From Escherichia coli (GTDB lineage Bacteria > Pseudomonadota > Gammaproteobacteria > Enterobacterales > Enterobacteriaceae), in NCBI RefSeq assembly GCF_044324785.1, contig NZ_CP172127.1: a stretch of 64,000 bases of DNA; one strand, given 5' to 3'. Below are positions 6,955-32,221 of the stretch, one piece after another; position 1 is the stretch's first letter; each line of letters starts with the position of its first letter. Under the pieces are notes generated by a model, which was not told where the DNA came from, did not search any database, and worked only from the letters and a program-made list of their open reading frames with translations. A program made the position numbers and the translations under genes.

Positions 6955-7001
6955 TGTTGTGTACTCTGTAATTTTTATCTGTCTGTGCGCTATGCCTATA
7001 T

Positions 7002-7030
7002 TGGTTAAAGTATTTAGTGACCTAAGTCAA
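7002..7030 (-). promoter_or_regulatory. thr operon promoter (-35 TTGACT, 17-bp spacer, -10 TAACCA on the minus strand)
   Basis: Hexamers read from the sequence at 7025-7030 and 7002-7007 (reverse complement); matches the known thr promoter region. Confidence 0.65.
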
Positions 7031-7164
7031 TAAAATTTTAATTTACTCACGGCAGGTAACCAGTTCAGAAGCTGCTATCAGACACTCTTTTTTTAATCCA
7101 CACAGAGACATATTGCCCGTTGCAGTCAGAATGAAAAGCTGAAAAATACTTACTAAGGCGTTTT

Positions 7165-7851
7165 TTATTTGGTGATATTTTTTTCAATATCATGCAGCAA
7201 ACGGTGCAACATTGCCGTGTCTCGTTGCTCTAAAAGCCCCAGGCGTTGTTGTAACCAGTCGACCAGTTTTATGTCATCTGCCACTGCCAGAGTCGTCAGC
7301 AGTGCCATGGCTCGTTCGCGTAAAGCTTGCAGTTGATGTTTGTCTGCCGTTGTGTCACTTTTCGCCGGTTGTTGTATTAATGTTGCTAATTGATAGCAAT
7401 AGACCATCACCGCCTGCCCAAGATTGAGCGAAGGATAATCCGCCACCATCGGCACACCAGTAAGAACGTCAGCCAACGCTAACTCTTCGTTAGTCAGCCC
7501 GGAATCTTCGCGACCAAACACCAGCGCGGCATGGCTCATCCATGAAGATTTTTCCTCTAACAGCGGCACCAGTTCTACTGGCGTAGCGTAGTAATGATAT
7601 TTCGCCCGACTGCGCGCAGTGGTGGCGACAGTGAAATCGACATCGTGTAACGATTCAGCCAGTGTCGGGAAAACTTTAATATTATCAATAATATCACCAG
7701 ATCCATGTGCGACCCAGCGGGTGGCTGGCTCCAGGTGCGCCTGACTATCGACAATCCGCAGTTTGCTAAACCCCATCGTTTTCATTGCCCGCGCCGCTGC
7801 CCCAATATTTTCTGCTCTGGCGGGTGCGACCAGAATAATCGTTATACGCAT
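7165..7851 (-). CDS. lasT: SpoU/TrmH-family tRNA/rRNA methyltransferase LasT
   Basis: ORF track 7165..7872; start set at MRITIILVAPARAENIGAAARAMK (228 aa). Confidence 0.9.
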   Translation of the reverse strand: MRITIILVAPARAENIGAAARAMKTMGFSKLRIVDSQAHLEPATRWVAHGSGDIIDNIKVFPTLAESLHDVDFTVATTARSRAKYHYYATPVELVPLLEEKSSWMSHAALVFGREDSGLTNEELALADVLTGVPMVADYPSLNLGQAVMVYCYQLATLIQQPAKSDTTADKHQLQALRERAMALLTTLAVADDIKLVDWLQQRLGLLEQRDTAMLHRLLHDIEKNITK

Positions 7852-18120: not shown

Positions 18121-19788
18121 GTGGCTCAATTCGTTTATACCATGCATCGTGTCGGCAAAGTTGTTCCGCCGAAACGTCATATTTTGAAAAACATCTCTCT
18201 GAGTTTCTTCCCTGGGGCAAAAATTGGTGTCCTGGGTCTGAACGGCGCGGGTAAGTCCACCCTGCTGCGCATTATGGCGGGCATTGATAAAGACATCGAA
18301 GGCGAAGCGCGTCCGCAACCGGATATCAAGATTGGTTATCTGCCGCAGGAACCGCAGCTGAACCCGGAACACACCGTGCGTGAGTCCATTGAAGAAGCGG
18401 TTTCTGAAGTGGTTAACGCCCTGAAACGCCTGGATGAAGTGTATGCGCTGTACGCCGATCCGGATGCCGATTTTGACAAGCTGGCCGCTGAACAAGGCCG
18501 TCTGGAAGAGATCATTCAGGCTCACGACGGTCACAACCTGAACGTTCAGCTGGAGCGTGCGGCGGATGCGCTGCGTCTGCCGGACTGGGACGCGAAAATC
18601 GCTAACCTCTCCGGTGGTGAGCGTCGTCGCGTGGCGTTGTGCCGCCTGCTGCTGGAAAAACCAGACATGCTGCTGCTCGACGAACCGACCAACCACCTGG
18701 ATGCCGAATCCGTGGCCTGGTTGGAACGCTTCCTGCACGACTTCGAAGGCACCGTGGTGGCGATTACCCACGACCGTTACTTCCTTGATAACGTTGCAGG
18801 CTGGATCCTCGAACTGGACCGCGGTGAAGGTATTCCGTGGGAAGGCAACTACTCCTCCTGGCTGGAGCAGAAAGATCAACGTCTGGCGCAGGAAGCTTCA
18901 CAAGAAGCTGCGCGTCGTAAGTCGATTGAGAAAGAGCTGGAGTGGGTACGTCAGGGAACTAAAGGCCGTCAGTCGAAAGGTAAAGCACGTCTGGCGCGTT
19001 TTGAAGAGCTGAACAGCACCGAATATCAGAAACGTAACGAAACCAACGAACTGTTTATTCCACCAGGACCGCGTCTTGGCGATAAAGTGCTGGAAGTCAA
19101 CAACCTGCGTAAATCCTATGGCGATCGTCTGCTGATTGATGACCTGAGCTTCTCGATCCCGAAAGGAGCGATCGTCGGGATCATCGGTCCGAACGGTGCG
19201 GGTAAATCGACCCTGTTCCGTATGATCTCTGGTCAGGAACAGCCGGACAGCGGCACCATCACTTTGGGTGAAACGGTGAAACTGGCATCGGTTGATCAGT
19301 TCCGTGACTCAATGGATAACAGCAAAACCGTTTGGGAAGAAGTTTCCGGCGGGCTGGATATCATGAAGATCGGCAACACCGAGATGCCAAGCCGTGCCTA
19401 CGTTGGCCGCTTTAACTTTAAAGGGGTTGATCAGGGTAAACGCGTTGGCGAACTCTCCGGCGGTGAGCGCGGTCGTCTGCATCTGGCGAAGCTGCTGCAG
19501 GTTGGCGGCAACATGCTGCTGCTCGACGAACCAACCAACGACCTGGATATCGAAACCCTGCGCGCGCTGGAAAACGCCCTGCTGGAGTTCCCGGGCTGCG
19601 CGATGGTTATCTCGCACGACCGTTGGTTCCTCGACCGTATCGCCACGCACATTCTGGATTACCAGGATGAAGGTAAAGTTGAGTTCTTCGAAGGTAACTT
19701 TACCGAGTACGAAGAGTACAAGAAACGCACGCTGGGCGCAGACGCGCTGGAGCCGAAGCGTATCAAGTACAAGCGTATTGCGAAGTAA
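18121..19788 (+). CDS. ettA: ABC-F energy-dependent translational throttle protein EttA (YjjK)
   Basis: ORF track 555 aa, MAQFVYTMHRVGKVVPPKRHILKNISLSFFPGAKIGVLGLNGAGKSTLL...; two ABC domains. Confidence 0.97.
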   Translation: MAQFVYTMHRVGKVVPPKRHILKNISLSFFPGAKIGVLGLNGAGKSTLLRIMAGIDKDIEGEARPQPDIKIGYLPQEPQLNPEHTVRESIEEAVSEVVNALKRLDEVYALYADPDADFDKLAAEQGRLEEIIQAHDGHNLNVQLERAADALRLPDWDAKIANLSGGERRRVALCRLLLEKPDMLLLDEPTNHLDAESVAWLERFLHDFEGTVVAITHDRYFLDNVAGWILELDRGEGIPWEGNYSSWLEQKDQRLAQEASQEAARRKSIEKELEWVRQGTKGRQSKGKARLARFEELNSTEYQKRNETNELFIPPGPRLGDKVLEVNNLRKSYGDRLLIDDLSFSIPKGAIVGIIGPNGAGKSTLFRMISGQEQPDSGTITLGETVKLASVDQFRDSMDNSKTVWEEVSGGLDIMKIGNTEMPSRAYVGRFNFKGVDQGKRVGELSGGERGRLHLAKLLQVGGNMLLLDEPTNDLDIETLRALENALLEFPGCAMVISHDRWFLDRIATHILDYQDEGKVEFFEGNFTEYEEYKKRTLGADALEPKRIKYKRIAK

Positions 19789-19876
19789 TGCGTAAAATGC
19801 CGGATGCGGCGCGCCAGCATCGCATCCGGTATTAGTTAAATGATTAGTCCCCGGAAAAAGGCAGAATTTTCTTTAA
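19015..19876 (+). repeat. Left copy of a ~0.86 kb direct repeat (ettA codon Ser299 to stop, REP hairpin, decayed 3' tip of the antitoxin gene)
   Basis: Sequence from agcaccgaatatcagaaacgtaacg... through ...ccggaaaaaggcagaattttctttaa recurs at 23917-24776. Confidence 0.85.
19797..19831. repeat. REP-like palindrome downstream of ettA (gccggatgcg ... cgcatccggt)
   Basis: Inverted repeat read directly; same element recurs at about 24686-24720. Confidence 0.7.
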
Positions 19877-19943
19877 GCGTATTAGCTCAGATGCGGACTG
19901 ACACCTCAAATCAAGCGGGAACTCATGGTTCCCGCTTAACGTT

Positions 19944-20831
19944 TTATTCACCGCGCAGGATCTGGCGGAAATGGGAAACCAGCGGACGTTGGTTGGCTTT
20001 ATGCCAGGCTGCCCATAATTGCGTTGAATAATTCATCCACGGCAATTCACGTAATACCACCCCTTCCGGCGCATTATGACGCAGACTATGTTGAATTAAG
20101 GCCAGACCTAATCCCGCAGCGACCAGACCTAATGCCGTGAGGGGTTCACCCGCTTCCAGGCGAATATCAGGATTAAACCCGGCGTTAACACAGGCGGCGA
20201 CAAAATGATCGCGAGAATGCGCATCGTCGTTATGAATCACCGCAATCCACTGCTCATCGCCAAGTTGTGACGCGACAAGGTTTTCCTCCTGCGCCAGAGG
20301 ATGATTTTGCGGTAAGGCCAACAACATTCGATCATCCAGAACCTGAATATATTCCAGATCCTGCTCGCTGTCGGCGGGCGGCGTATCGACCAGAGAAAAA
20401 TCGAGACTGCGCTGGCGCAGGCCTTCAATCTGGGTAGCCGGTGGTTGGCTGTAAAGTGCGATATGCACATTCGGACGCGATACACGTAACGTACGTAGCG
20501 CCGTAGAAAGCACACCGGAATGCATGGCGTTTTCGATATAGCCAATACACAAGCCACCATCTTCCCCCCGTCCCAGGCGTTTGCCTAACGACTCCAGGCG
20601 GTTGGCGTGTGTCAGCAACGAACGTGTTTCGGCAAGGAATGTCTGTCCATCAGCGGTCAGGCGAATGCGCTGCTGATTACGCTCAAACAGCGTCAGCCCC
20701 AGCCGTTCTTCCAGTTGTGCAATCTGGCGGCTCAGCGGTGATTGCGAGATATGTAATCGCTCGGCTGCGCGTCCCACGTGCTCTTCTTCTGCGACCACCA
20801 CGAAGTACTTCAGTTGGCGTAAATCAATCAT
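19944..20831 (-). CDS. LysR-family transcriptional regulator
   Basis: ORF track 19944..20924; start set at MIDLRQLKYFVVVAEEEHVGRAAERLHISQSPLSRQIAQLEERLG (typical LysR HTH); divergent from the reductase genes. Confidence 0.85.
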   Translation of the reverse strand: MIDLRQLKYFVVVAEEEHVGRAAERLHISQSPLSRQIAQLEERLGLTLFERNQQRIRLTADGQTFLAETRSLLTHANRLESLGKRLGRGEDGGLCIGYIENAMHSGVLSTALRTLRVSRPNVHIALYSQPPATQIEGLRQRSLDFSLVDTPPADSEQDLEYIQVLDDRMLLALPQNHPLAQEENLVASQLGDEQWIAVIHNDDAHSRDHFVAACVNAGFNPDIRLEAGEPLTALGLVAAGLGLALIQHSLRHNAPEGVVLRELPWMNYSTQLWAAWHKANQRPLVSHFRQILRGE

Positions 20832-20964
20832 GTTAGACCTCAAAGGACTTAAGTCAGACGAATTATGTCCTATCAAGTCACAACCTCGCAAGGTATTGTG
20901 ATCCACGTCACAGGGCGATAGCAAAAAAACGCCCTAACCCAAACCGAATAATTGAGGACATCTT

Positions 20965-21975
20965 ATGAGCATCAAAAATTTACTTCCCGGCAAAATTGGC
21001 TTAGGTGGCGCACCACTCGGCAACATGTTCCGTGCCATTCCGGAAGACGAGGCCCACGCCACCGTGAGCGAAGCCTGGAACCTGGGCGTGCGTTACTTTG
21101 ATACCGCGCCGCTGTACGGCTCTGGCCTTTCTGAAATCCGCATGGGTGAAGCGCTGTCTCAGTATCCACGCGATGAATACGTTCTGAGCAGCAAAGTCGG
21201 TCGCATCATGCTGGACGAAATGGAAGATCCGGCAAAACGTGATTTCGGTGAAAAAGGTGGCCTGTTCGAACACGGCCTGAAAAACAAAATTCTGAATGAC
21301 TACTCTGCTGACGCCACGCTGCGCTCGATTGAAGACAGCCTGAAACGCCTGAAAACAGACCGTCTGGATATTGTCTGGATCCATGACCCGGCGCAGGACT
21401 TCTACGGTGACAGCTGGCTGGAACAGTTCAACATTGCCCGTACCGGTGCGTTTCGTGCGCTGACGCGTTTGCGTGACGAAGGTGTGATTAAAGCCTGGGG
21501 ACTGGGTGTGAATCGCGTCGAACCTTGCGAACTGACGCTGGCGCTGGACGAACCGAAGCCGGATGCGTTCCTGCTGGCGGGGCGTTATTCCCTGCTGGAT
21601 CACGAACGTGCGCTGCAACGCCTGATGCCAGAAGCACTGGAACAGAACGTGGATATTGTTGTGGGCGGTCCGTACAGCTCTGGCGTACTGGCAGGCGGCG
21701 AGCACTTTGAATATCAGAAAGCTTCTGCGGCCATCCAGCAGAAAGTGGCGCAAATTAACACCATTGCCACACGTTTCAATGTGAACGTTAAAGCAGCTGC
21801 GCTGCAGTTCGCACTGGCAAACCCGGCCGTTGCGGCGGTTATTCCTGGCTCCAGCCGTCCTGGCCGTATGGCAGAAGATCTGGCTGCACTGAATGCGCCT
21901 GTTCCGGCTGAATTCTGGGCAGAAATGCGCCGTCAAAATCTGGTTGCGGAAAACGCTCCGCTGCCGACCCGTTAA
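20965..21975 (+). CDS. Aldo-keto reductase family oxidoreductase
   Basis: ORF track 336 aa; AKR-type N-terminus (GLGGAPLGNMF...YFDTAPLYGSGLSE); GGAG-type RBS 8 nt upstream. Confidence 0.85.
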   Translation: MSIKNLLPGKIGLGGAPLGNMFRAIPEDEAHATVSEAWNLGVRYFDTAPLYGSGLSEIRMGEALSQYPRDEYVLSSKVGRIMLDEMEDPAKRDFGEKGGLFEHGLKNKILNDYSADATLRSIEDSLKRLKTDRLDIVWIHDPAQDFYGDSWLEQFNIARTGAFRALTRLRDEGVIKAWGLGVNRVEPCELTLALDEPKPDAFLLAGRYSLLDHERALQRLMPEALEQNVDIVVGGPYSSGVLAGGEHFEYQKASAAIQQKVAQINTIATRFNVNVKAAALQFALANPAVAAVIPGSSRPGRMAEDLAALNAPVPAEFWAEMRRQNLVAENAPLPTR

Positions 21976-21994
21976 TCAACCTGGTGAGAAAACG

Positions 21995-22792
21995 ATGAAA
22001 CTGGATCTGACAGGTAAAGTCGCGGTAGTCAGCGGCTCAACCTCCGGCATTGGGCAGGGTATCGCCGCCGGACTGGCAAAAGCAGGCGCAACGGTGGTTG
22101 TCGTCGGCCGTAAACAGCGCGGCGTTGATGACGCCATGGCTGCGATTGCGGCACAAACTCCCACGGCGTCACTGCGTGGCGTGGTGGCCGACCTCAGCAC
22201 CGAAGACGGCGTGGCTGCGCTGATCGCTGCAGTCCCAACGGCTGATGTGCTGGTCAATAATCTGGGCATTTTTAACGATAAAGATTTCTTTAGCGTTCCG
22301 GATGATGAGTGGATGCACTTCTATAACGTCAACGTCCTCTCCGGCGTTCGTCTGGCGCGTCACTATGCGCCAGGCATGACGGAACAGGGCTGGGGGCGGA
22401 TTATCTTTGTCTCGTCCGAATCCGGCGTGGCAATCCCTGGCGACATGATCAACTACGGCGTCACCAAAGCCGCGAATCTGGCGGTTTCTCATGGTCTGGC
22501 GAAACGACTGGCGGGGACCGGTGTGACCGTCAACGCCATTCTGCCAGGGCCAACCTTTACCGATGGCCTGAAAGAGATGCTGGCGGATGCCGCTGCACAA
22601 TCGGGACGCAGTGCGCGTGAACAGGCCGATGAGTTTGTTAAAACCTCGCGTCCGAGCTCCATCATCCAGCGTGCGGCGGATGTGGAAGAAGTGGCGAATC
22701 TGGCGGTTTATCTCGCGTCACCGCTTTCCTCGGCAACCACAGGGGCAGCCCTGCGCGTCGATGGTGGCGTCGTCGACACCCTGACTATGTAA
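21995..22792 (+). CDS. Short-chain dehydrogenase/reductase (classical SDR)
   Basis: ORF track 21893..22792; start set at MKLDLTGKVAVVSGSTSGIGQGIA (TGxxxGxG); YGVTK catalytic motif present. Confidence 0.85.
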   Translation: MKLDLTGKVAVVSGSTSGIGQGIAAGLAKAGATVVVVGRKQRGVDDAMAAIAAQTPTASLRGVVADLSTEDGVAALIAAVPTADVLVNNLGIFNDKDFFSVPDDEWMHFYNVNVLSGVRLARHYAPGMTEQGWGRIIFVSSESGVAIPGDMINYGVTKAANLAVSHGLAKRLAGTGVTVNAILPGPTFTDGLKEMLADAAAQSGRSAREQADEFVKTSRPSSIIQRAADVEEVANLAVYLASPLSSATTGAALRVDGGVVDTLTM

Positions 22793-22817
22793 CCCTATAA
22801 ATTAAGAGAAAATTATC

Positions 22818-23234
22818 ATGGCTAAAACAACTGTATCGATCGAAATTCCGGCTTCTGCCGACGCCGTATGGCAATTGATGGGCGGCTTTGATGCGCTGCC
22901 AGACTGGCTGCCGTTCATCCCGAAAAGCGTGGTGACAGAAGGCGGTCGCGTTCGTTCGCTGACAACCTCTGACGGCGGCACTGTGGTTGAACGTCTGGAA
23001 GCGTTTGATAACCGTCAACGCAGTTATACCTATTCCATTATTCAAGCACCGTTCCCAGTGGTGGATTACCTCTCCACCATTACCGTTCATGAAACCGCCG
23101 ACAGCCAGGTTTCCCGTGTGGAATGGTTCGGTGAATTCACCCCGGTGAATGTGACGAACGAAGAGGCCGAAGCGCTGTTTACCGGCATCTATCGGGATGG
23201 TCTCAAGGCGCTGAAGGACAACTTTGTTGCCTGA
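22818..23234 (+). CDS. SRPBCC (Bet v1-like / polyketide cyclase-dehydrase fold) protein
   Basis: ORF track 138 aa; size and composition typical of SRPBCC small-molecule binding proteins; family call from memory only. Confidence 0.6.
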   Translation: MAKTTVSIEIPASADAVWQLMGGFDALPDWLPFIPKSVVTEGGRVRSLTTSDGGTVVERLEAFDNRQRSYTYSIIQAPFPVVDYLSTITVHETADSQVSRVEWFGEFTPVNVTNEEAEALFTGIYRDGLKALKDNFVA

Positions 23235-23391
23235 TGCAATCGACAGGCGTCGGAACGTCCGGCGTCTGATTATTAACAAAAGCAGAATAGTCTATTGTCA
23301 TTTGTATCATTTATGTTATCAGGCAGCAGGCGTATTCTCTTCCCATCGCGTTAATAAACGCCAAACAATTAAGACACTCTGGAATATAAAC

Positions 23392-23604
23392 ATGAAAACG
23401 ATCATCGCAATTTTTACGGCTTCTCTTTTCTCTGTCGCGGCGTTTAACGCATCGGCGCAAAGCGTGACAGCAACCGGTACAACACTGGATTCTGCGGAAG
23501 CAGTTATTGCGCAGAAAGCGAAAGAGATGAACGCCTCTGAATACAAAATCACCAGCGCTCGCATGGGCAATACCGTCACCATGAGTGCCGAACTGTACAA
23601 ATAA
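23392..23604 (+). CDS. Small secreted DUF1471 (YdgH/BhsA/McbA-like) protein
   Basis: Internal start MKTIIAIFTASLFSVAAFNASAQ (signal peptide) within ORF track 23224..23604; 70 aa. Confidence 0.6.
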   Translation: MKTIIAIFTASLFSVAAFNASAQSVTATGTTLDSAEAVIAQKAKEMNASEYKITSARMGNTVTMSAELYK

Positions 23605-23652
23605 CCGCGCAAGGGACCCATTACGTAATTTGCTAAATATGCGCTGAATGCG

Positions 23653-23838
23653 TTGCCATTAAAAAACCGTATTGTAATGCCACCGATGACACGTTCCCGT
23701 GCGGGTGACGTTGCGACTGACATGATGGCGGACTATTACGCGCAGCGCGCTAGTGCAGGACTTATCATCAGCGAAGGTACGCAAATCAGCAGAAGCGCTG
23801 CGCATAATTTTCCACGGCCCGCTGATTTACTCCGGTAA
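23653..23838 (+). pseudogene. Remnant of an Old Yellow Enzyme (NemA-like NADH:flavin oxidoreductase) N-terminus
   Basis: ...LKNRIVMPPMTRSRAGDVATDMMADYYAQRASAGLIISEGTQIS resembles the OYE N-terminal region, then the frame terminates after about 60 codons. Confidence 0.5.
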
Positions 23839-23916
23839 ATAGACCAAAGCGCGCGCAGAAGCGGACTGTCAGATTTGATTGCATTCTGGCTACGCAACTG
23901 GTCGGTTGGAGTATGA

Positions 23917-24677
23917 AGCACCGAATATCAGAAACGTAACGAAACCAACGAACTGTTTATTCCACCTGGACCGTGTCTGGGCGACAAAGTGCTGGAAGTC
24001 AGCAACCTGCGTAAATCCTATGGCGATCGTCTGCTGATTGACTCCCTGAGCTTCTCGATCCCGAAAGGAGCGATCGTCGGGATCATCGGTCCGAACGGTA
24101 CGGGCAAATCGACGTTGTTCCGTATGATCTCTGGTCAGGAACAGCCGGACAGCGGCACCATCACTCTGGGTGAAACGGTGAAACTGGCATCGGTTGATCA
24201 GTTCCGTGACTCAATGGATAACCGCAAAGCCGTTTGGGAAGAAGTTTCCGGCGGGCTGGATATCATGAAGATCGGCAACACCGAGATGCCAAGCCGCGCC
24301 TACGTTGGCCGCTTTAACTTTAAGGTAAACGCGTTGGTGAACTTTCCGGTGGTGAGCGCGGTCGTCTGCATCTGGCGAAGCTGCTGCAGGTTGGCGGCAA
24401 CATGCTGCTGCTCGACGAACCAACTAACGACCTGAATATCGAAACCCTGCGCGCGCTGGAAAACGCCCTACTGGAGTTCCCGGGCTGTGCGATGGTTATC
24501 TCGCACGACCGTTGGTTCCTCGACCGTATCGCCACGCACATCCTGGACTACCAGGATGAAGGTAAAGTTGAGTTCTTCGAAGGTAACTTTACCGAGTACG
24601 AAGAGTACAAAAAACGCACGCTGGGCGCAGACGCGCTGGAGCCGAAGCGTATCAAGTACAAGCGTATTGCGAAGTAA
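23917..24677 (+). pseudogene. ettA: Frameshifted duplicate of the ettA 3' half
   Basis: Near-identical to ettA 19015-19788 but with a ~13-nt deletion near 24318; ORF track splits it into 23989..24435 and 24402..24677. Confidence 0.85.
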
Positions 24678-24776
24678 TGCGTAAAATGCCGGGTGCGGCG
24701 CGCCAGCATCGCATCCGGTATTAGTTAAATGATTAATGGGAGGCAAGTTCCCGGAAAAAGGCAGGATTTTCTTTAA
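23917..24776 (+). repeat. Right copy of the ~0.86 kb direct repeat (ettA 3' fragment, REP, and the true 3' end of the antitoxin gene)
   Basis: Aligns by eye to 19015-19876 with point differences and two small indels. Confidence 0.85.
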
Positions 24777-25017
24777 TTGTGGCAAGTACTTTTGCAGCCA
24801 ATCCCGTAGGATTTCTTCGCTTCGATTCCCAGCTTTTAATGGTATCCACACTGGTTCCCAGAGCTTTTGCCATCTCACTTTGAGAAACGTTGAGTTGCTC
24901 ACGAATAGCTTTAACATCCGCAATTTCGTAGCGGGTCACCCGTGCAGGTTCTTTTAAACCTTGTTTAATCTCGACAGCCTCTTCCAGAGAGGTTTTCAAC
25001 TCATCAAAAAAACTCAT
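24733..25017 (-). CDS. XRE-family HTH antitoxin (HigA-like)
   Basis: ORF track 94 aa, MSFFDELKTSLEEAVEIKQGLKEPARVTRYEIADVKAIREQLNVSQSEMAKALGTSVDTIKSWE...; starts 1 nt after the toxin stop. Confidence 0.75.
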   Translation of the reverse strand: MSFFDELKTSLEEAVEIKQGLKEPARVTRYEIADVKAIREQLNVSQSEMAKALGTSVDTIKSWESKRRNPTGLAAKVLATIKENPAFFRELASH

Positions 25018-25018
25018 T

Positions 25019-25351
25019 TTATACCTCGCCTTTGAGCAGTTTCGTCAACTTCTTTAGTTGAGCTTTTTCCGTATCTGTCAGACTATCTTTGGCATTTTTC
25101 GGATAGGCCATAATCAAATAAATAATCTCTTCCGTCGCCAGAAAGTAAATTATTCTGACACTGCCACTTTTTCCCTGTGAACCCGCAGCCATTCGGACTT
25201 TACGCAATCCACCAGTCTGCTGAATGAGATCACCTTTATCGGGAGTTCCGATGAGTTCTTTTTGTAATTCCTTTAATTCATCATCGGTTGCAATCTGCTT
25301 GATCTGACGCGTAAACATTGGCGTCTCTATAAATATTATCGCCTTGCCCAT
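25019..25351 (-). CDS. RelE/ParE-superfamily toxin, HigB-2-like
   Basis: ORF track 25019..25429; start set at MGKAIIFIETPMFTRQIK... with GGAGG upstream; GGLRKVRMA...GSVRIIYF motif region resembles HigB-2 toxins. Confidence 0.7.
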   Translation of the reverse strand: MGKAIIFIETPMFTRQIKQIATDDELKELQKELIGTPDKGDLIQQTGGLRKVRMAAGSQGKSGSVRIIYFLATEEIIYLIMAYPKNAKDSLTDTEKAQLKKLTKLLKGEV

Positions 25352-30889: not shown

Positions 30890-32221
30890 TTACCCGCCCA
30901 TGCGGGCAACTTTCCCTTCGATTTGCCGGATTTTTTCCGGCATTTCTTGTGCAATGTGGCGAAATGCCTCGCTGATACGCGGATCTCCGGCGACCGTTTG
31001 CCAGAACTGCTGCGCCAGCGGGATCGCCGTTAACCATGCACTTTTACTGACGTTAAGATCAAACCTCACCTCAATGGCAGCATCACGCAACATTCCGGCG
31101 CTGTTTGGTGCATAGGCCATCGGCAGCATGTCGTAGACGGGCGTCAGCGCAAATGGTGGTTCAGATAAATAAAATGATAAATTGCCTGCGTGCATATCGC
31201 TGTTGGCGATAAGTCGCCCAAACGCCCAGATCACTTCTGTTTGCGCCACGCTCTGGTGAGTGACAAGTTGTTGCTCACACAAACGGCGCATAGCCTCCGG
31301 CCACGATCCCGGAGAAGAGATAAACTCACTCTGCACCGCCTCCAGCGACACAATGGGCAAACGACCATCGTTACCTTTGCAGTCAAATCGTTCCGCTTCA
31401 AGGAATACCTGCCTGTTACTTGTTACAAGCACCGTTGACTCGATGGCGTGGATCCCACCGTCGAGCAGGATTTGCGCGGCAATAGATTCCGCAATAAGCA
31501 AGTCGCCCCAACGTTGGCTGACCGCGGTTTGCTGTGGCACGGTGAATTTAACCAGCACATGTTTATTGCCTGACGGCGTTTGTGCATAGCAGGTAAATTT
31601 TGGCTGCTCGCCGCCCGCAGAAGAACCCACAATTTCTCCTGCCAGAGCATCGCTTGCCAGTTGTTCGTAATGGGTGAGTTTTTGATCCAGAGGAATTGCC
31701 GCAGGGCGTTGTGCAGTAATCCATCGCTGATAATTACCCTCCCCGACCAGCCAGCCGCCGGTGTATTCACCGCTAAATACGGTCAGGGCGTAGAGCACAT
31801 CTTCTTCCTGCCAGAGACGGATATCTTCAGTAAGATTCAGTTGCGCGGCTAACTTCCTGCCCCACGCGCGCCCCAAAAACCCCTGCGGTCGCAGATCGGT
31901 CAAATACCAGGGCAAACTATCAAACCACTGTTCGTCGCCATCTGCGCCTGTTACCAGACAACTTCCCTGCGGCCAGCACAACCGGATGTCGGCGAATTTA
32001 TGCGCCTTTCCGGCATCATCCACTCGCCATACGGGAATACGCTCAATTCCGCGATAAGGACGCAGCAGTGCATATCGCGTTGCCCGTGCTTTACCAAAGC
32101 GAATCACCCGATCTTCTCTGGCAACAAGGCGTGAGAACGTCGCCTGACTGATTGCCAGACGCTGGCGCAATTCCGGGGCAGAACGCGGCCCTTGCAGTAA
32201 AAGATCGGTCAGTTCGCTCAT
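30890..32221 (-). CDS. yjjJ: HipA-like Ser/Thr kinase with N-terminal HTH (YjjJ)
   Basis: ORF track 443 aa, MSELTDLLLQGPRSAPELRQRLAISQATFSRLVARE...; HipA-type C-terminal region. Confidence 0.9.
   Translation of the reverse strand: MSELTDLLLQGPRSAPELRQRLAISQATFSRLVAREDRVIRFGKARATRYALLRPYRGIERIPVWRVDDAGKAHKFADIRLCWPQGSCLVTGADGDEQWFDSLPWYLTDLRPQGFLGRAWGRKLAAQLNLTEDIRLWQEEDVLYALTVFSGEYTGGWLVGEGNYQRWITAQRPAAIPLDQKLTHYEQLASDALAGEIVGSSAGGEQPKFTCYAQTPSGNKHVLVKFTVPQQTAVSQRWGDLLIAESIAAQILLDGGIHAIESTVLVTSNRQVFLEAERFDCKGNDGRLPIVSLEAVQSEFISSPGSWPEAMRRLCEQQLVTHQSVAQTEVIWAFGRLIANSDMHAGNLSFYLSEPPFALTPVYDMLPMAYAPNSAGMLRDAAIEVRFDLNVSKSAWLTAIPLAQQFWQTVAGDPRISEAFRHIAQEMPEKIRQIEGKVARMGG

Follow-up and report, generated by a model that had tools for sequence, protein, structure and literature searches.

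The right border of a small metabolic cassette beside ettA in Escherichia coli raises a twofold question: whether the stretch that follows the cassette, with its two overlapping open reading frames, can still act as a gene, and how a second, partial copy of a core gene came to stand there. The window analyzed here, a stretch of 64,000 nucleotides, is an E. coli chromosome segment with the gene order slt-ettA ... nadR-radA-serB. It contains the intact gene for EttA (YjjK), the ABC-F protein that serves E. coli as an energy-dependent translational throttle, and, at positions 23917-24677, a 5'-truncated copy of this gene that is very probably a non-functional relic, in other words an ordinary pseudogene without gene function.

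Identity and extent of the ettA fragment

The intact gene, the fragment (ettA') and its open frames are located as follows:

18121-19788, + strand: intact ettA, 555 aa, GTG start (open reading frame and Pfam; the equivalent gene in locus L001 carries the PGAP name ettA)
23914-23916, + strand: in-frame TGA directly upstream of ettA', at the cassette/fragment junction (read from the sequence)
23917-24677, + strand: ettA' pseudogene, ettA codons 299-555, 5'-truncated and frameshifted (repeat search, alignment, translation, PGAP)
23989-24435, + strand: ORF1, 148 aa, with a GTG start that corresponds to the internal codon Val323; Walker A and Q-loop region (ORF list, translation)
24323-24324, + strand: site of the 13-nt deletion, with AGGGGTTGATCAG missing and the GVDQ codons removed (alignments)
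24402-24677, + strand: ORF2, 91 aa, with an ATG start that corresponds to an internal Met; Walker B, D-loop (D476N), H-switch and C-terminal tail (ORF list, translation)

A repeat search and a pairwise alignment match 23917-24677 to 19015-19788 of the intact gene with 96-97% DNA identity, far above chance. The repeat search paired 19015-19314 with 23917-24216 (96%) and 19435-19734 with 24324-24623 (97%); the pairwise alignment runs continuously from 23917 to beyond 24677, with one 13-nt gap as its only interruption. These results confirm the duplicated ettA 3' half with a deletion of about 13 nt that the original prediction had described, and the two overlapping frames that it had given, here called ORF1 and ORF2, are matched exactly in the ORF list. 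The fragment begins at ettA codon 299, within the inter-domain linker and 24 codons upstream of the second ABC domain, and 298 codons of ettA are absent from its 5' end; compared to EttA, what remains is the last part of the linker, the second ABC domain and the C-terminal tail, whereas the start codon, the first ABC domain and almost the entire linker are missing. The position of the TGA at the junction fits with the opening of ORF1 only at 23989. A degenerate extension of ettA homology upstream of 23917 was considered and rejected, since the C-terminal region of OYE is the better match for the sequence there.

The 13-nt deletion shifts the frame of ettA' just ahead of the LSGGE signature motif; the signature motif, Walker B and the H-switch lie in a different frame from Walker A, and no single frame holds the complete motif set. 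The Walker A sequence GPNGTGKST that had been noticed in the first frame is indeed present and fits the pattern GxxxxGK[ST], although it differs from the GPNGAGKST that is conserved in EttA. ORF1 ends in 38 out-of-frame residues (this tail includes VNALVNFPVVSAVVCIWR), and its Pfam match to ABC_tran is limited to profile positions 2-51 of 137, about one third of a nucleotide-binding domain (NBD); no Pfam family matched ORF2. In the intact ettA product, Pfam finds two ABC_tran domains and an ABC_tran_Xtn domain, in the order ABC_tran, ABC_tran_Xtn, ABC_tran. Neither ORF contains a complete nucleotide-binding domain, and the ABC-F architecture of two tandem NBDs joined by a linker is found in neither.

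The pseudogene status is already part of the public annotation: in NZ_CP015229 (E. coli 06-00048), PGAP labels the identical interval [quoted passage not shown] and "partial in the middle of a contig". Truncation and frameshift, absence from close relatives, and recognition by standard annotation thus coincide in this fragment; a literature search on ettA and pseudogene found no relevant paper. Gene callers nevertheless report ORF1 (148 aa) and ORF2 (91 aa) as proteins, on approximately 25 contigs in total, and the exact window sequences number 13 and 14, respectively. For annotation, the practical value of the present analysis is that both ORFs should be suppressed as pseudogene pieces. The ORF2 product (24402-24674) shares a 90% protein cluster with genuine full-length EttA from several genera, a small annotation artefact.

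Decay of the fragment and coding potential of its open frames

The original prediction had proposed to compare other genomes in order to see whether the frameshift is fixed or strain-specific, and this comparison finds it fixed: the 13-nt deletion occurs in 11/11 fragment-bearing loci examined (the window, E. coli 06-00048, and nine more found by exact look-up of the ORF products). The fragment copies are about 1% diverged from each other and share nine derived changes; polymorphism within the 11 copies amounts to seven non-synonymous and six synonymous differences, and within the ORF2 interval six of the nine variable sites are non-synonymous. On the fragment lineage itself, eight non-synonymous changes stand against eight synonymous ones, compared to a ratio of 3:25 in functional alleles (six ettA alleles, over the same codons as the fragment; Fisher p = 0.009); the substitutions include R318C, A360T in Walker A, S401R, and D476N in the D-loop. 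The resulting dN/dS of approximately 0.3, calculated from small counts, is well above that of the functional copies and remains below 1; some of the synonymous differences of the fragment may predate its inactivation. Judged by these substitution patterns, constraint on the fragment is relaxed, and its protein sequence does not appear to be under purifying selection; in this respect, and in its Walker A and D-loop substitutions, the fragment differs from ettA, which is under strong purifying selection. In one locus, L094 (GCA_037967675.1, positions 7001-7612), an extra 77-nt deletion, equivalent to window positions 24407-24483, removes the start of ORF2 together with Walker B; the out-of-frame tail of ORF1 is here fused to the C-terminal frame, and the resulting 203-aa ORF is again reported by gene callers. 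The fixed 13-nt frameshift, the amino acid changes and the 77-nt deletion in one lineage show that the copy has decayed neutrally since its origin.

The original prediction had also raised the idea that a stand-alone ABC-F half-domain could be expressed from the fragment and interfere with EttA. The calculated anti-Shine-Dalgarno pairing energies of -2.8 kcal/mol (ORF1) and -4.8 kcal/mol (ORF2) compare with a local background mean of -2.6 and a 5th percentile of -5.9, and no Shine-Dalgarno sequence above local background level was found at either ORF start. A scan of positions 23200-24800 found no sigma-70-like site on the + strand and no terminator-like site; since no terminator-like site was found, read-through transcription of ettA' from the same-strand cassette genes is possible. 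A start codon with a ribosome-binding site and a promoter is thus not recognizable for either frame; instead, there are internal Val and Met starts and an upstream in-frame TGA.

In its general form, the half-domain proposal holds that translation of ORF1, ORF2 or both produces an independent ABC-F half-domain, which would bind to EttA or to the ribosome and modulate translation. Besides possible transcriptional read-through from the cassette, it could draw on the consensus-compatible Walker A in ORF1, on Walker B and the H-switch in ORF2, on the fact that both ORFs are open in 10 of the 11 loci, and on their recognition by gene callers. Against these points weigh the missing Shine-Dalgarno sequences and promoter and the in-frame stop upstream; the separation of the signature from the frame of Walker A, the 38 nonsense residues at the end of ORF1, and Pfam matches that amount to roughly a third of an NBD for ORF1 and are lacking for ORF2; the non-synonymous changes in Walker A and the D-loop, and similar numbers of non-synonymous and synonymous changes in both halves; the loss of the ORF2 start and Walker B in L094; and the absence of the fragment from 480 of the 481 other cassette carriers among complete genomes and from all non-carriers. 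EttA contacts the ribosome through its ABC1 arm and its linker (PtIM); the fragment lacks this ribosome-contacting arm and most of the linker, which makes an interfering half-domain unlikely on structural grounds. Taken together, translation into a functional half-domain appears extremely improbable, and its interference with EttA has no computed support, such that the chance of it is minimal. The same very low probability applies to a variant in which read-through-transcribed ORF1 or ORF2 would yield, at low level, a half-NBD peptide that pairs with EttA or another ABC-F protein and perturbs ATP-dependent ribosome gating in the rare carrier lineages. The original judgement that the interval is most likely a pseudogene is therefore supported by truncation, the fixed frameshift, relaxed constraint, the extra deletion in one relative, rarity among cassette carriers, and the PGAP call. 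The fragment carries little biological weight; a functional ettA gene is intact 4 kb upstream, and the copy itself shows neutral decay.

The cassette, the flanking repeat and their distribution

The fragment is best understood within the arrangement in which it occurs, composed of two repeat arms (R1 and R2), the inserted cassette, and the genes to its right:

19015-19876, + strand: repeat arm R1, comprising ettA codons 299-555, a REP-like hairpin and a nadS 3' remnant of ~31 nt with an 11-nt deletion (repeat search, alignments)
19877-23916: inserted cassette, LysR-AKR-SDR-SRPBCC-DUF1471-OYE' (PGAP annotation in L001 and L002)
19944-20831, - strand: LysR regulator (PGAP, cassette)
20965-21975, + strand: aldo/keto reductase (PGAP, cassette)
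21995-22792, + strand: SDR (PGAP, cassette)
22818-23234, + strand: SRPBCC (PGAP, cassette)
23392-23604, + strand: DUF1471/YdgH-BhsA (PGAP, cassette)
23653-23916, + strand: remnant of a decayed OYE/NemA-like alkene reductase gene
24678-24776, + strand: rest of repeat arm R2, with the REP-like hairpin 3' of ettA' and the 3' end of intact nadS (alignment)
24733-25017, - strand: nadS, intact (PGAP names in L001 and L004)
25019-25351, - strand: RelE/ParE-family toxin gene (PGAP names in L001 and L004)

The repeat arms R1 and R2 form a direct repeat of approximately 860 bp that flanks the 4-kb cassette; R2 spans from 23917 to about 24776, past the stop codon of the fragment. After the fragment follow nadS, the RelE/ParE toxin gene and nadR; the locus type that carries the fragment is thus relE+, and on its right side it matches the arrangement of ATCC 11775 almost exactly. 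Within one genome, R1 and R2 show about a dozen differences at sites where functional ettA alleles of E. coli also vary, which indicates that the two arms stem from different alleles. Consequently, the original description of the fragment as a decaying duplicate holds with regard to its decay, whereas a simple duplication within one genome is probably not its source, given these allelic differences and the different flank type. The nadS 3'-end remnant with its 11-nt deletion (19846-19876), located after intact ettA and the hairpin, is common to all cassette carriers examined.

The OYE remnant at the right end of the cassette retains about 45 N-terminal codons; relative to E. coli E69 it has lost 686 bp internally, and it also shows a premature stop, the loss of 13 nt, and truncation at the 3' end. 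Relatives of the cassette occur elsewhere, beside yhiN in E. coli E69 (where the OYE gene, of 365 aa, is intact) and beside glyS in E. whittamii, and also in Trabulsiella, Yokenella, Yersinia, Raoultella, Serratia and others. The left boundary of the cassette is always located at the LysR terminator hairpin. The idea of a mobile unit with a defined right end, which would account for the shared joint, was rejected, since the versions in E69 and E. whittamii continue as far as the stop codon of OYE; this marks the right end beside ettA as truncated and not as the terminus of an element. No gene for an integrase or a transposase appears in the ORF lists or the PGAP annotation for the cassette of the window and its immediate surroundings. 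A truncated 3'-end copy at the far border of an insert resembles the border remnants of genomic islands (duplicated 3' ends of tRNAs or genes, attL/attR); yet, unlike integrative islands, the locus has no integrase, tRNA or short att core, its repeat measures ~860 bp, its far border lies inside a decayed OYE gene, and no such repeats accompany the cassette at its other loci. The locus does not look like a site-specific integrative island.

The cassette is found in 482/5426 complete E. coli genomes. In 459 of these, its right end is joined to the middle of nadS (equivalent to window position 24893) without an ettA fragment; the fragment occurs in a single complete genome among the 5426, that of strain 06-00048, and hence in 1/482 cassette carriers. 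Approximately 25 contigs in a larger protein collection carry the 148-aa ORF or close variants. No exact match to the cassette/ettA' joint or to the 13-nt-deletion joint was found in JGI metagenome contigs, a dataset that holds little E. coli. Genomes without the cassette show three locus types, ettA-nadS-relE-nadR (ATCC 11775), ettA-nadS-nadR (STEC383) and ettA-REP-nadS remnant-nadR (K-12). The common cassette form has a relE-deleted right flank as in K-12 and STEC383, whereas the fragment-bearing form has a relE+ flank as in ATCC 11775. The pair of nadS (HTH antitoxin-like) and toxin genes is variable in E. coli; in K-12, nothing but a 5' remnant of nadS is left, behind REP elements, and in STEC383 nadS is present but the toxin gene is missing. 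Another variable spot lies nearby: in the lineage of the window (L092, L100), lplA is followed by a gene with a HipA_C domain (30890-32221, - strand), and in other lineages with the fragment this position is taken by an 87-aa HTH gene and a PNP_UDP_1 gene. The window genome is closest to strain N3, which lacks the fragment, with 99.5% identity over thrABC and 98.5% over yjjI-osmY.

Probable recombination at the right border of the cassette

The two junction types, cassette/ettA' in the rare form and cassette/nadS in the common form, share the left junction and the cassette end ...GGAGTATGA(AG), where a 2-nt AG overlap is found at both joints; an overlap of 2 nt is too short to be diagnostic. 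In the rare form, the cassette end is followed by a second copy of the ettA 3' part, the hairpin, intact nadS, relE and nadR. From this architecture, the fragment is most likely the scar of a recombination event at the right border of the cassette that would have involved a second ettA allele. Similar products have been obtained experimentally: when DNA with homology on one side was integrated in E. coli, products of homology-facilitated illegitimate integration (HFIR) and, more often, single-crossover products with target duplications of 109-950 bp were recovered (Amarir-Bouhram et al., 2011; PMC3240628). The resemblance extends to the direct duplication of several hundred bp of target that flanks the insert (here R1 19015-19876 and R2 23917-24776) and would extend to the combination of one homologous joint with one putatively illegitimate joint with short microhomology. 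Differences are that the event considered here is a natural and old one, deduced from comparative sequence, that its microhomology comprises only 2 nt, and that the recipient lost no DNA where the illegitimate joint formed, whereas a loss of about 1 kb is usual in published HFIR events (PMC3240628).

The order of events that we favor, by a modest degree, has the common form first and the fragment added later. The cassette would first have entered the nadS gene of a genome without relE, where 113 bp of the target would have been deleted. Later, DNA from a relE+ strain would have recombined into the cassette-bearing chromosome; the right-hand join would have been homologous, in the nadS 5' part or nadR, and the left-hand join illegitimate, with 2-nt AG microhomology, exactly where homology ends. 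In this way, 5'-truncated ettA would have been stitched in as the non-homologous tail of the incoming DNA. A Campbell-type single crossover of a circularized fragment is an alternative route that would produce the same architecture.

The reverse order, although less probable, has arguments of its own. The fragment-bearing form would then be the primary product, formed when the cassette entered a relE+ chromosome with a target duplication of ~860 bp, either because a circle with the ettA 3' part integrated by a Campbell-type single crossover or because sister chromatids were joined unequally, and the common form would have followed by later deletion of the fragment. Direct repeats do flank the insert, and single-crossover products with duplications of 109-950 bp were the majority class in the E. 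coli experiment (PMC3240628); the arrangement is not recent, given the ~1% divergence and the nine shared derived changes among the copies, and the fragment carriers are scattered on the cassette tree, where the two fragment-bearing genomes are not sisters (among nine ettA-locus cassettes sampled). The cassette tree and the N3-like background of the window genome are, however, uninformative on the order of events, because ordinary homologous recombination between the cassette and nadR can convert either state into the other. The later deletion, moreover, would have to begin within 2 nt of the cassette/fragment joint; the common form would also have to gain the relE deletion of K-12 and STEC383, which makes three events instead of two; and a circle with a joint between the nadS 3' end and the cassette presupposes an earlier genome that had this joint. 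Primary formation of the fragment is accordingly less likely than its later addition, and the fragment is a dead relic in both histories. Microhomology between the CAC(C)GAATA-like motifs of the two joints could have mediated a deletion; this was considered and rejected, since the common form keeps TTGCT, which this deletion would remove.

Retention for a purpose is a different matter: the fragment could be kept as a direct repeat that lets RecA excise the cassette precisely and restore the ettA-nadS arrangement, which would render the cassette reversible. Direct repeats of 860 bp that are 96-97% identical and surround 4 kb of DNA are a good RecA substrate, and the fragment-bearing state is rarer than the fragment-less state, as expected if it were unstable. 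Excision potential is nevertheless a consequence of the structure and not evidence of selection; if the crossover fell upstream of the 13-nt deletion, ettA itself would be destroyed, and the sequence decay of the repeat argues against its maintenance. Retention as an excision device is therefore very unlikely. Under the preferred reading of later addition, the locus would provide a natural example of a small metabolic cassette that became embedded beside a core gene, where later recombination left a partial gene duplicate.

As a side observation, a single truncated end of the cassette has two partners, ettA codon 299 in the window (23916-23918) and the middle of nadS in L002 (8917-8919); neither a simple deletion nor an independent insertion accounts for this pair of junctions. 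The reuse of the same cassette end at two joints constitutes a minor curiosity for research on illegitimate recombination.
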